UHGV virus genome: UHGV-1834275
From: a virus
Direction: 5' to 3' (one strand)
DNA: 33,070 bases
Positions 13,075-16,626 of the stretch are shown here, one piece after another. The position numbers and the translations under genes were made by a program. Below the pieces are notes generated by a model. The model worked only from the letters and a program-made list of their open reading frames with translations, was not told where the DNA came from and did not search any database. Within the stretch, counting starts at the first letter, position 1; each line of letters begins with the position of its first letter.

Positions 13075-13533
13075 TTATTCTTTTGGTAGTAAACCAGATT
13101 CGATAGCTGCACCATCAACCGCTAGATTAAACGATTTGGTAACTACTGCGTCTTTATCACCAGCGATAGTTGTAGAACTAACGAAACATGTATAGACAAC
13201 ATAGCAGCCTGTAGTTTCAGTAGCGTCTGTGTAGTAACTTAGACGAATCTGACAACGCTTCTGCTCATCTGCTAGTGTTTCTAGCAATTGGTGTGTCTCG
13301 TTATCTGGAAGATAGTTAACTTGTAGTTCAATATCTGGAATTGATTTAGTACCTAATAGTTTACGGTTATAAGCACTATTGAATGTGACTACATCGATTA
13401 CAACTGATTCAAAACCTGAAGTAGTGAAAGAGGCAACTTCTGGTACTTCTTTAAAGTCAGTAGCTAGGGTAGTACCCGCACTTGTACCTACTTCAACTTT
13501 TAAATTAGCACCTGAAAAGATATCCATTGGCAT
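13075..13533 (-). CDS. Major tail (tube) protein candidate
   Basis: 152 aa; occupies the major-tail-protein position immediately upstream of the chaperones and tape measure; followed by a terminator. Homologous to the N-terminal ~150 aa of the upstream 1008-aa fibre protein. Assignment is positional. Confidence 0.55.
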   Translation of the reverse strand: MPMDIFSGANLKVEVGTSAGTTLATDFKEVPEVASFTTSGFESVVIDVVTFNSAYNRKLLGTKSIPDIELQVNYLPDNETHQLLETLADEQKRCQIRLSYYTDATETTGCYVVYTCFVSSTTIAGDKDAVVTKSFNLAVDGAAIESGLLPKE

Positions 13534-13599
13534 TTTTATATTTCCTTATATAAGTTTATTTCTAGTAGGGCAAGAATCCTTTCTTACCCTACGTTGTAT

Positions 13600-16500
13600 T
13601 TATTTATTCATTAGTTGTTGTACTAATGCTTTTAGTTCATCAATTTGTGATTGTTGATAATCATTATCTTTCTTCAATGATTGAACCGATCCCATTAAAT
13701 CCATAACAATTGGGTTAACATCGATAGACGGTCTATCGCGTGTTAGTTGTTCTACTATGTTTCCTTCTTCATCAAGTACTTCATCATAGATTTCTGGATT
13801 GTGTTTCACATACTGAGGTGTGTTTATTTCTGACTCTTCGGCAATAATCCCAAAACGCTGGCGTTTTTGTTCATCATCTTTATAGACAAAATTAACCATT
13901 TTTTGAGATAAAATTCTTTCTAACGCTTCGTCGGTTTTTGCTTCTACAATATCTTCTTTATAGTCTCTACCGGATGTACCTTGTAAAGCCAATGCACCAC
14001 CACCTAGCGGTAGTGAGATCCAATATTGTGGGCTTCCTGCTGCTGTGTAGGTCTGGAATCCGTAGTTGCCTACAGTTTCTGAAAAACCAGCACGGATACG
14101 TACAACACCATTTGATGCAAGATTACATGTATAAGAGGCTGAACCGTTGGAACGTAGCATAATTGCATCAGTACCAGCACTTGAACCACCACACGTAACA
14201 CGGTTGCTAGTTACATCGAATGTACCAGCACATGTAGTATTACCTAATGCAGTAATAACACCGCCGAAATTCATGGTATTAGTAGTACGTGAATAGTTGA
14301 ATAGAGCTACACCACCTGTATTATCACGGTTTAAACGGAATGATCCACCATCTGCTACAAATAGATATGTACTATCTGAGGAATCCGATTCTACAAATGA
14401 TAAACATGGGTTTGTACTGGTAATAGTTAATGGGTTTGACGCTGCGTTAGAGAATTTAGCAGTACCATTATTAGTTACGTTGATACCCGGCGTTGTAATT
14501 AGACTACTGAAATAAGAGCCACCATTACTAAAGGTCATTAAGCCCTGTCCAACGGTTGCGGAACCTTCACCAACATAGATACGTGCATCATAATCGTTTC
14601 CAGTACCGCTACTGTGAAAATCAATAAATGATCCCGCCTTTGTTGTTGTACTGCCTAATTCAAAACCTACTGTACTTGTATTTAATGTACCAACCTGTAA
14701 GCCACCAGTTTTAATAGTTTGTGACCCGTTCCATTGGTTACCACCATCTAGCGTTGGGATAGTTACACCCAATTGATCATTCGTTAGGTATTCTTTCCAT
14801 GCAGTCCACCCCGCCGTACCAGCTAATACACGTCTCCATTTACGATTACTTGCGTAGGATGTATATTCTTGTACACAAGCCTGTGCGGTTCCTGCACCAG
14901 TTGGATATACGTATAAACCGCCAGCCTCGGCAATTGGGTATTTGTTAGCAGGGGTTGCACTTGCGTTTAGTGTTTGGTAATAGAATCCAGATTGAGCCGC
15001 ACCCAATGTATCTAGGTTAACACTAGCGGCTAGTGCCGTCTGACTACGGTACATTGCCTGTAAATTATTACGGGCTGCATCTACACTATTTGCACCAGTA
15101 CCGCCCTCTGTAATTGCAAGTTTATTCGTTAGTGTTAGTACACCATTGAAATGTAAACTTGCAGCCATAATATTCATTGAACCACTACCAGCCGCCGTAG
15201 TAGAACCGCCTGTAGATTGAATACGAGAATCATAATCTACGGTACTACCGGAACTGTGAAAATCAATATAAGATGTACTAGCCGCTACTGTAGAGCCAAT
15301 TTCAATACCGCCACCTGTGGAAGAATTAGCCGCAAATCTATTTTGATTGCCGTTAAATTGTTGGTTACCAGACCATGTATTTTCTGTACTTAATAGTGGG
15401 ATTGTTGCACCAGAAGTACCAGTATTAATTACTGCTGAAGTACCTAAGCCTAAGTTTGTACGTGCGTTAGCTACGTTAGTTAAATCAGATAGGTTACTTG
15501 CCTTAATAAGATACTTACCATCCATTGCAGTACTTGTAACGATACCTAAGTTTACTTGTGCCTGTGCAACGGTACTAGCACCTGTGCCACCGTTCGCCAC
15601 TGGTACGATATCGAAAGTACCCGCCGCTTTAACGCCTAAGTTTGTACGTGCTTCTGCTGCCGTCTTAGCACCAGTACCGCCATTTGCTACCGTTAGAGCT
15701 TGACCTAAAGTTAATGATCCTGCACTTGCTACGCCTAAAGTAGAAGTAGTGGTTTTAATACTTTCACCAGTGATTGCACCAGTTGCCTCTACATCTGCAC
15801 CCGTAATTTTATTTGCAGAAATTAAGCTATTGACTTTGACATTACCGGAAAATGTTTTATTCCCTGCAATAGTCTGATCACCAGTTAGAGCTACATACTT
15901 TGTATCACCTAGATTAGTTGTTAAAATACGTTGCCATGCGGTAGTCTGGTTTTTTGCATAGATTGCAAGTGAACCTGTTTTAGTCATTGCGATAGAACTA
16001 AAAGTAGTACCATCAATTAGACCTACACCCATCATATCAGCACTGGCTGGATTACCCACTTGTGACGCTGGGATCTTGATAAAGCTGTTACCTAGTGGGC
16101 GTTCTGGTTGATACTGTGGTACATCACCACCATTACTACCTACACCATAGGAACCTTCTACTAATGCTGCACTTGCTAACGCCGTACCATCACGTGTAAT
16201 AACGTCTGTAGGTACAAAAGAATAGGTTTTCATTACTACGGTATCTTTATCACCAGATACGTTAGCTGATTGGATTTGACCATTAACCATTGAATAATTG
16301 ATTAAACCATCTTCAATATTGTAGCGTAGTGTTAATTGAAATTCTTTTTGACTCTCGGTTGCAGCATCTAAGAAAGCATGTGTTTCATCATCTGGAATAT
16401 AGTTAACAGTAATATCAATATTATCTACGTTTTGTTCTGCTGCTAGTTTAGATGAGTACTCACTATCGTATGTTTCAAGTGTTTGTATCTCACTTTCGAT

Positions 16501-16626
16501 TCCAAATGACGGCATCGCTGCCAATTCGTTTATTTCTTCGTTGCCTGCATTATCGGGAATACGGTTAGCAGTATCATTATTATAGAATAACTTAAAGTTA
16601 TTACCTGTAAAAATATCATTACTCAT
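13600..16626 (-). CDS. Tail fibre protein with an N-terminal tail-tube-like domain and a C-terminal intramolecular chaperone (peptidase S74-like) domain
   Basis: N-terminus (MSNDIFTGNNFK...VNYIPDDETH...GDKDTVVMKTYSF) parallels the 152-aa protein (MPMDIFSGANLK...VNYLPDNETH...GDKDAVVTKSFNL). Repeated fibre motifs ANGGTGAKTAAEARTNLGV, ANGGTGASTVAQAQVNLGI, EGGTGANSVDAARNNLQA and IDFHSSGSTVDYDSRI / IDFHSSGTGNDYDARI. C-terminus TSGRDYKEDIVEAK... resembles the auto-cleaving chaperone domain of endosialidase-type fibres. Confidence 0.8.
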   Translation of the reverse strand: MSNDIFTGNNFKLFYNNDTANRIPDNAGNEEINELAAMPSFGIESEIQTLETYDSEYSSKLAAEQNVDNIDITVNYIPDDETHAFLDAATESQKEFQLTLRYNIEDGLINYSMVNGQIQSANVSGDKDTVVMKTYSFVPTDVITRDGTALASAALVEGSYGVGSNGGDVPQYQPERPLGNSFIKIPASQVGNPASADMMGVGLIDGTTFSSIAMTKTGSLAIYAKNQTTAWQRILTTNLGDTKYVALTGDQTIAGNKTFSGNVKVNSLISANKITGADVEATGAITGESIKTTTSTLGVASAGSLTLGQALTVANGGTGAKTAAEARTNLGVKAAGTFDIVPVANGGTGASTVAQAQVNLGIVTSTAMDGKYLIKASNLSDLTNVANARTNLGLGTSAVINTGTSGATIPLLSTENTWSGNQQFNGNQNRFAANSSTGGGIEIGSTVAASTSYIDFHSSGSTVDYDSRIQSTGGSTTAAGSGSMNIMAASLHFNGVLTLTNKLAITEGGTGANSVDAARNNLQAMYRSQTALAASVNLDTLGAAQSGFYYQTLNASATPANKYPIAEAGGLYVYPTGAGTAQACVQEYTSYASNRKWRRVLAGTAGWTAWKEYLTNDQLGVTIPTLDGGNQWNGSQTIKTGGLQVGTLNTSTVGFELGSTTTKAGSFIDFHSSGTGNDYDARIYVGEGSATVGQGLMTFSNGGSYFSSLITTPGINVTNNGTAKFSNAASNPLTITSTNPCLSFVESDSSDSTYLFVADGGSFRLNRDNTGGVALFNYSRTTNTMNFGGVITALGNTTCAGTFDVTSNRVTCGGSSAGTDAIMLRSNGSASYTCNLASNGVVRIRAGFSETVGNYGFQTYTAAGSPQYWISLPLGGGALALQGTSGRDYKEDIVEAKTDEALERILSQKMVNFVYKDDEQKRQRFGIIAEESEINTPQYVKHNPEIYDEVLDEEGNIVEQLTRDRPSIDVNPIVMDLMGSVQSLKKDNDYQQSQIDELKALVQQLMNK

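Follow-up and report, generated by a model that had tools for sequence, protein, structure and literature searches.

How side fibres are fixed on the tails of siphophages other than T5 is described as an open point in the structural study of the T5 tail tip, whose authors concluded that anchoring must differ in other siphophages (PMC10038345). In T5, the p140 ring, which arose from a duplication of the tube gene, lies between the tail tube and the distal tail protein (Dit) and is the site of fibre anchoring (PMC10038345). In Ur-lambda, the N-termini of the side fibre Stf form a collar at the gpV/gpM junction (PMC12617516). Where side-fibre anchors of Gram-negative siphophages and of the F-type pyocin have been solved, they are found at the tail tip: Ur-lambda and T5 have theirs at the tube/DTP junction, the F-type pyocin on its central fibre (PMC12617516, PMC10038345, PMC13455828). 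In this report we focused on a 1008-aa protein encoded in UHGV-1834275, a stretch of 33,070 nt (hereafter the window, meaning the whole of the DNA that was analysed), which is an Escherichia coli prophage, i.e., a temperate siphophage inserted into the chromosome of an enterobacterium. On balance, we consider it probable that this protein is a lateral tail fibre anchored as a subunit of a dedicated tube ring, through a diverged duplicate of the tube protein. As with T5 p140, its N-terminal domain (N-domain) is a paralogue of the phage's own tube protein, and the logic is the same as in the T5 p140/p132/pb1 and DT57C LtfA/B/C sets, but where those phages use three separate proteins there is here a single fused one. 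In T5 the fibre docks on p132, an Ig-like 12-mer collar around the p140 ring, whereas here the paralogue itself carries the fibre, no p132-like protein is detected and the module has no collar gene; moreover, the trimeric p140 ring is made of double tube domains, and the fibre has a single one. The parts of the fibre and its two immediate neighbours are as follows.

13600..16626, minus strand: whole fibre gene, 1008 aa plus stop codon, product identical to E. coli WP_162720622.1.
16177..16626, minus strand: fibre residues 1-150, domain with the predicted fold of a tail-tube protein (TTP), paralogue of the adjacent TTP.
15892..16164, minus strand: fibre residues 155-245, second conserved anchor domain, with the pattern GSYGVGSNG...NSFIKIP...GNP..D..G.G..D...G.L..YAKN..TAW.RI.T.
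14032..15891, minus strand: fibre residues 246-865, variable trimeric shaft and receptor-binding region.
13603..14031, minus strand: fibre residues 866-1008, Peptidase_S74 intramolecular chaperone.
13972-13974 (Ser885) and 13957-13959 (Lys890), minus strand: predicted Ser/Lys dyad, S-x4-K, in TSGRDYK.
13075..13533, minus strand: major tail-tube protein, 152 aa, matching Pfam Phage_tail_3 above the gathering score and PHROG 158/584/1407 'major tail protein'.
16641..17036, minus strand: tail terminator, 131 aa, directly upstream of the fibre gene, with a terminator fold.

The first important finding is that the fibre begins with a paralogue of the tube protein encoded next to it, as had been claimed in an original prediction made without database searches. 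Both open reading frames (ORFs) on which that claim was built are present on the minus strand (13600-16626, 1008 aa, and 13075-13533, 152 aa), and in a single BLASTP comparison fibre residues 1-155 align along their whole length with residues 1-149 of the tube protein, with 30% identity, 53% positives and an E value of 1e-20, which excludes chance similarity. No other segment of the fibre gave a significant BLASTP alignment with the 152-aa protein. Three sequence blocks said to be shared by the two proteins can indeed be read in both (DIFTGNNFK/DIFSGANLK, VNYIPDDETH/VNYLPDNETH and GDKDTVVMK/GDKDAVVTK), but the trailing F attributed to the third is out of register. The putative tail-tube protein of the prediction is borne out as such by a match to Pfam Phage_tail_3 (PF08813, TTP) of 27.5 bits, against a gathering threshold of 24.2, and PHROG 158 'major tail protein' is matched both by the tube protein (E=5.6e-20) and by fibre residues 1-398 (E=2.9e-25). 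An AlphaFold2 model of the fibre N-domain, computed from an alignment of 38 N-domains collected by an exhaustive profile search, has a mean pLDDT of 73 with a confident core, and its flexible residues 44-64 occupy the place of the long inter-ring hairpin in tube proteins. The model exhibits the β-sandwich with one flanking α-helix and the long β2-β3 hairpin by which the TTP fold is recognised, its best matches are tube proteins, in a comparison that lists R4C, NF5, monocin and RcGTA, and comparison with viral predicted structures agrees, so that structure prediction points to a TTP fold for the shared domain and not to an unrelated one.

Several properties that would matter in a tube wall are kept in the fibre N-domain. 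Its hairpin region aligns with that of the tube protein without gaps and retains its full length, the fused and plain families both conserve the T[YF][DN]SxY motif of the hairpin as well as VNY.PD..H..L and GDK, and the N-domain's pI of 4.05 is as acidic as that of the tube protein, which is compatible with assembly into a hexameric channel-lining ring. At the same time, the fused form has conserved motifs of its own, such as YNxDxxN, and within the hairpin region 26 of 38 columns are conserved at a level of at least 80% in the tube protein, of which this is the best-conserved part, versus 10 of 38 in the fibre domain. We considered the tail terminator or connector as another identity for the N-domain and rejected it: the 131-aa protein just upstream has the terminator fold, the N-domain matches tube proteins best and it did not itself classify as a terminator. 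The presence of this separate terminator-fold protein makes the suggestion that the fibre sits on the connector unlikely.

The second finding is that the anchor is larger than its tube-like part. The latter does extend over about 150 residues, as originally claimed, but conservation along the fibre stays high up to about residue 245 before collapsing, so that the conserved anchor is 245 residues long and comprises a second domain at residues 155-245. This domain is found in 111 of the 114 long members of the family, including that of phage DCP80, and is better conserved than the tube-like domain, with identities to the window protein over residues 151-250 of 41-74% per 10-residue block and of 55-74% in the best blocks (161-200 and 211-230). 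Pfam and PDB searches gave no significant sequence match for it, the best being a non-significant hit to a bulb-lectin (E=0.37), and an hhalign comparison with the collar protein of the T5-like phage BF23 returned a probability of 0.1%. We had considered a p132/Stf-like collar domain as its identity, for which the same searches provide no sequence support. A BppL_N-like motif lies at residues 248-261 in the variable region, which also contains the fibre repeats announced by the original prediction: (A/E)(N/G)GGTGA...A(R/Q)xNLG is seen at residues 316, 346 and 508, and the related ARTNLG at residue 391. From about residue 500 onward, the protein resembles L-shaped fibres of the T5 pb1/LtfA type and other coliphage side fibres. 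Its C-terminal chaperone, also anticipated, is Peptidase_S74 (PF13884; residues 887-933, 29.9 bits versus a threshold of 22), with predicted cleavage, and residues 866-998 match the C terminus of DT57C LtfA (PDB 8hqz_d) with E values of 2.6e-44 and 5.6e-46, the chaperone ends of the two being about 65% identical in an alignment inspected by eye. TS885GRDYK890 aligns with TSGIEYK of LtfA. By homology with endosialidase and T5 pb1, we take Ser885 and Lys890 to form the dyad responsible for cleavage, which at Ser885 is predicted to release about 124 aa.

The third finding is that this architecture is widespread and that the fused and plain proteins occur together. An exhaustive HMM scan with the N-domain of 1.84 billion representatives, defined at 50% identity, yielded 177 proteins, most of them 600-1500 aa long with the domain at residues 1 to ~140, together with ~25 plain tube proteins of ~150 aa. 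In the phage collection, no match to the window was found at the DNA level, and the N-domain was found at the protein level in DCP80 only; a word-indexed protein search with the N-domain gave one partial match only. Scans of genomes with a pattern built on eight sequences recovered six species genomes, all Enterobacterales, and 64 IMG/VR contigs, and overall the arrangement recurs in ~70 Enterobacterales prophage loci in addition to phage DCP80. The gene order is capsid, adaptor (~106 aa), terminator (~131 aa), tube-like fibre, tube (~152 aa), chaperones, tape measure and Dit, and is constant in the sense that it is seen in essentially every locus not cut by the end of a contig. The order from terminator through tube-like fibre, tube, tail-assembly chaperones (TAC) and tape-measure protein (TMP) to Dit is shared by the six species genomes, two E. 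coli chromosomes, ~60 IMG/VR contigs, DCP80 and two distant prophages, and in DCP80 and the two distant prophages the same layout sometimes has a second fibre protein behind the first. None of the related loci has the fused form alone without a plain tube protein. Vibrio phage henriette, the nearest other relative of the tube protein, has a plain 145-aa tube protein only. In a neighbour-joining tree, the plain and fused forms make up separate clades, and among 48 non-redundant loci mean pairwise identity is 66% for the tube protein, the most conserved of the module, 44% for the fibre N-domain, 46% for the adaptor and 35% for the terminator. Beyond the anchor, the distal parts are mosaics, with Peptidase_S74 in 31 of 49 sampled members and T4 gp34/gp36/gp37 trimerisation domains, Collar or Phage_tail_C_2 in others; they are obligate trimeric adhesin modules under diversifying exchange. 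One locus (L067, IMGVR_UViG_2724679352_000006) has at 8995-9456 an intact 153-aa ORF of the fused type that stops right after the tube-like domain and is followed by a normal tube gene, and its close relatives L056 and L070 encode fibres of 590-673 aa. An intact tube-like ORF without a fibre hints that the ring itself is structurally needed.

These observations bear on the two uses that the original prediction had offered for the tube-like module, the anchoring of a fibre or a pair of alternative tube subunits. The separate clades, the constant co-occurrence and order, the different rates of divergence of the N-domain and the tube protein and the extra domain at residues 155-245 favour a specialised anchoring module over two interchangeable tube subunits. 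In the mechanism we propose, the distal part of the fibre would be a trimeric adhesin akin to the L-shaped fibres of T5 and DT57C, folded by its S74 chaperone and self-cut at Ser885, and residues 1-245 would be a conserved two-domain anchor whose tube-like domains are built in as a dedicated ring, stacked in register with the rings of plain tube protein. Each fibre trimer, folded beforehand, would bring three tube-like domains, i.e., half a ring, and two trimers are assumed to complete one hexameric ring bearing two fibres. The fibre would be held by being a tube subunit and not by docking on a separate collar, and the ring would occupy one of the two tube ends, with a slight preference for the tube/Dit junction over the site under the terminator. 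In function, the fibre might act as T5 pb1 and lambda Stf do, by fast reversible first binding to a surface glycan or a porin, with host range set by the swappable distal modules. We infer a dedicated ring because the hairpin region and the shared motifs are kept, because the two proteins are equally acidic, because the N-domain is too diverged and distinct for an equivalent lattice subunit, and because T5 p140 provides a precedent. Other tube-fold paralogues, T4 gp54/gp48 and Nocturne116 DTP1/DTP2, likewise occur in single defined rings and can adapt symmetry (PMC10038345, PMC13595954), but none of them bears a fibre. In lambda, the 853-aa gpH corresponds to 31 discs over 132.7 nm (PMC12617516), and scaling from it by tape-measure length predicts a tube of ~110 nm with ~26 rings, so that a single fibre ring would provide ~6 fibre chains per ~150 tube subunits.

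A number of points weigh against this mechanism. The entry of the N-domain into the tube wall is deduced from sequence, a predicted monomer structure and synteny, and the Pfam TTP models do not match the N-domain directly. A trimeric fibre on a hexameric ring poses a symmetry problem, which is settled here by assumption only, and the mechanism leaves the role of the strongly conserved domain at residues 155-245 unexplained. Because the adaptor gene of the window is frameshifted, this particular prophage copy may not make virions. Two further points concern the position of the ring and point to the head-proximal end: the location of the gene between those for the terminator and the tube, and the divergence of the N-domain, which has a rate near those of the adaptor and the terminator and tracks them (Spearman 0.81 and 0.80, respectively, over the 48 non-redundant loci) above the tube protein (0.68) and Dit (0.60), although linkage between neighbouring genes confounds this co-variation and no locking is seen among close pairs.

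The strongest competitor, a rather unlikely one in our view, builds on these last two points. It holds that the tube-like domains form the last head-proximal ring, under the terminator, and that the fibres are borne at the neck in the manner of collars or whiskers. The genes run adaptor, terminator, fibre, tube, in the sequence in which the parts of a lambdoid tail are physically arranged, the mean identities of N-domain, adaptor and terminator are alike and differ from that of the tube protein, and in T5 the position of the p140 gene predicted the physical position of its product (PMC10038345). However, tandem duplication of the tube gene could place the copy on one side of it or the other, the correlations are confounded by physical linkage, and the Gram-negative side-fibre anchors solved to date are at the tail tip. 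In addition, a fibre of ~640 residues would be too short to reach from the neck to the tip of a tail of this length, and there is no obvious means to confine a tube-like subunit to the last ring. A first ring, by contrast, is easily specified by affinity for Dit, which favours the distal position, and so, weakly, does the hairpin region, since its near-invariance in the tube protein and its variability in the fibre domain suggest a more variable partner below the fibre ring. If the ring is distal, Dit would be its neighbour.

A more far-reaching version of the dedicated ring, to which we attach only a small probability, is that the fibre trimers, as integral wall subunits of the DNA conduit, mechanically couple fibre-cell contact to the tube lattice and could thereby transmit or gate the signal for tail opening and DNA release. 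Were this the case, it would be a direct fibre-to-tube signalling route of a kind not seen in lambda or T5, where the fibres are on external collars, and a new solution to the mismatch between threefold and sixfold symmetry.

Slightly less probable again are two explanations that we rank equally. In one, fused and plain tube proteins co-polymerise, the fused one at scattered positions, so that fibres are displayed along the tail as with SPP1 gp17.1* or lactococcal TpeX. The N-domain does share the fold and acidic character of the tube protein, C-terminally decorated tube proteins are common (lambda gpV, T5 pb6 and SPP1 gp17.1*; PMC8718954) and longer tube-fold proteins are also present in BFVD. 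Known decorated forms, however, have an identical or near-identical tube domain, encoded by the same gene and extended by recoding in gp17.1* and TpeX, whereas here a separate gene encodes a domain that is 30% identical to the tube protein, falls in its own clade and has its own motifs. The cargo differs as well: the SPP1 gp17.1*, lambda gpV C-domain, T5 pb6 Ig domain and TpeX cases involve small Ig, FN3 or CBM domains, on the tube protein or a recoded version of it, all along the tail, and here an ~850-residue, trimeric, chaperone-dependent fibre is borne by a separate, deeply diverged paralogue. Obligate trimerisation of the fibre would force three subunits into the lattice together, and the faster evolution of the N-domain is unexpected for equivalent lattice positions.

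In the other, the tube-derived domain, perhaps together with the second domain, lies off the channel and forms a 12-mer collar around the tube that carries four fibres. This would agree with both solved Gram-negative side-fibre anchors on the tube itself, which are 12-mer collars around it (PMC12617516, PMC10038345), twelve chains would remove the mismatch between trimer and hexamer, and the extra conserved domain has no assigned role. Known collars, though, are built from Ig-like or small β-sheet domains and not from TTP folds, the N-domain keeps the full-length inter-ring hairpin and the motifs common to the tube protein, and the second domain lacks sequence similarity to a T5-type collar protein by hhalign. 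Ur-lambda Stf is one of the closest known systems, a trimeric side fibre whose own N-terminal domain forms a ring on a lambda-type tail (PMC12617516), as is proposed for the present fibre, and the tail tip of the window is itself lambda-like and not T5-like (gpJ-like central fibre, gpL/gpM-like proteins). The Stf N-terminus, however, is a 94-residue six-stranded sheet with a helix, which assembles as a 12-mer into a collar on the outside of the gpV/gpM junction, and the Stf gene comes after J. In the present fibre, the N-domain has the tube fold and is a paralogue of the tube protein, a second conserved domain follows it and the gene is found between terminator and tube.

Finally, that the fusion is an accident of decaying prophages and the protein unused in virions is scarcely credible, since despite the adaptor frameshift and nearby IS3 fragment in the window and the split fibre genes of several related loci, the two-domain anchor has intact ORFs across ~100 clusters at 50% identity, ~70 loci, several genera and the isolated phage DCP80, and its distal modules have been exchanged yet kept intact, a signature of selection for host range.

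The gene of this fibre belongs to a late-gene module that, judging from the ORF list and Pfam and PHROG matches, lies on the minus strand in a lambda-like order.

Head part, minus strand: small and large (gpA-type) terminase, 175-aa protein, lambda-type portal, protease-capsid fusion, 106-aa head-tail joining protein.
Tail part, minus strand: 131-aa protein, 1008-aa fibre, 152-aa tube protein, two chaperone ORFs, 727-aa tape measure, distal tail protein.
Tip part, minus strand: 207-aa PHROG 'tail protein' and 131-aa protein, in the positions of lambda gpL and gpK, then 1100-aa gpJ-like central fibre.
12327..13012, minus strand: two ORFs for tail-assembly chaperones of 99 aa and 111 aa, placed as lambda G/T, with a weak Phage_TAC_13 match and conserved synteny.
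10144..12327, minus strand: tape-measure protein, 727 aa.
9527..10078, minus strand: distal tail protein (Dit), 183 aa, matching PHROG 1302 'distal tail protein' with E=2.8e-17.

The closest copy of this prophage among species representatives is in Pseudocitrobacter faecalis DSM 27453, and relatives on two E. coli chromosomes have 76% DNA identity and are inserted at yegD. The head-tail joining (adaptor) gene encodes 106 aa in all relatives and is unbroken in the Pseudocitrobacter faecalis prophage (L004 7268-7588). In the window it is broken (17246-17357, minus strand) through the loss of one nucleotide from a C-run, CCCC becoming CCC, and the listed 69-aa ORF at 17039-17248 is its out-of-frame 3' part; the frameshift reflects either prophage decay or a homopolymer sequencing error. 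Accessory genes occupy 1-350, 2769-3206, 23764-24702, 25619-26344, 27304-28002, 29709-30194 and 31172-33070 of the window. Besides a fragment of an IS3 transposase at the window edge and a large serine recombinase at the far end, they encode a SegE-like GIY-YIG endonuclease and two HNH endonucleases, which are likely homing endonucleases, as well as a nuclease-like protein of the PLD family and an '8xMP' octameric membrane protein.

Some of the related loci have peculiarities of their own. Between a tube-sized ORF and the DUF6950 and tip-fibre genes of the distant relative L075 (CP162029.1 3235744-3251345; 10300-15500 of the locus), the chaperone, tape-measure and Dit genes are apparently missing, and a defective prophage that has undergone deletion is the probable explanation. 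In L002 (14368-16576; E. coli NZ_CM151386.1), the tape-measure gene consists of two ORFs of 130 aa and 589 aa; it is also split in L014 and intact (732 aa) in L003. Escherichia phage DCP80 (L001, PQ671644.1; 141 kb) is classified in GenBank as Straboviridae/Gaprivervirus, with nearly all of its genes labelled 'hypothetical'. Its structural module (1-23000) is siphophage-like, with a gpA-type terminase, a protease-capsid fusion, a tube protein, a tape measure and a lambda-type tip fibre, and this module and the tube-like-fibre arrangement make its taxonomy line look wrong.

The junction between the fibre and tube genes contains one further conserved element.

13565..13592, minus strand: GC-rich hairpin with a 12-bp stem and no T-run, situated between the fibre stop codon, 10 nt away, and the conserved ribosome-binding site (RBS) of the tube gene.

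An equivalent hairpin of 8-12 bp is found ~10 nt past the fibre stop and before the strongly conserved tube RBS (CTTATATAAGGAnATAAAATG) in ~40 related loci, and single-sequence folds predict one, without a T-run, in almost every related locus. RNAalifold found no consensus in a MAFFT alignment of this intergenic element, since the stems vary from locus to locus in both sequence and length. Its role may be that of an mRNA 3' end, of a stability element or of an uncoupling element, which would set the ratio of fibre to tube protein. The tube gene is itself followed directly by a second hairpin (13043-13068, minus strand), which has a T-run and resembles a terminator; this fits attenuation of transcription past the most abundant tail protein.

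Our findings have a practical side for annotation. RefSeq calls these proteins 'pyocin knob domain-containing S74 family peptidase' (WP_162720622.1) or 'tail fiber domain-containing protein', missing the tube domain. The PHROG 158 'major tail protein' profile, with its 376 positions, spans the tube-like domain, the second domain and part of the shaft, and because it reaches fibre residues 1-398, automated pipelines can label such fibres as major tail proteins. In the literature that we searched in full text, no description of a fusion between a tube domain and a fibre was found, and a 'paralog' lead from phiCbK was irrelevant to it. The anchors solved so far, in T5 and Ur-lambda, are of the collar type only, and a fibre fused to a duplicate of the tube protein, in a family widespread in prophages of E. 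coli and other Enterobacterales, suggests a third solution to anchoring. If this is true, it would raise the structural problem of how a trimer is placed on a hexamer and how one paralogue is confined to one ring. The 245-residue anchor, with its naturally interchangeable distal modules, would also be a scaffold for the re-targeting of temperate phages or tail-like particles.

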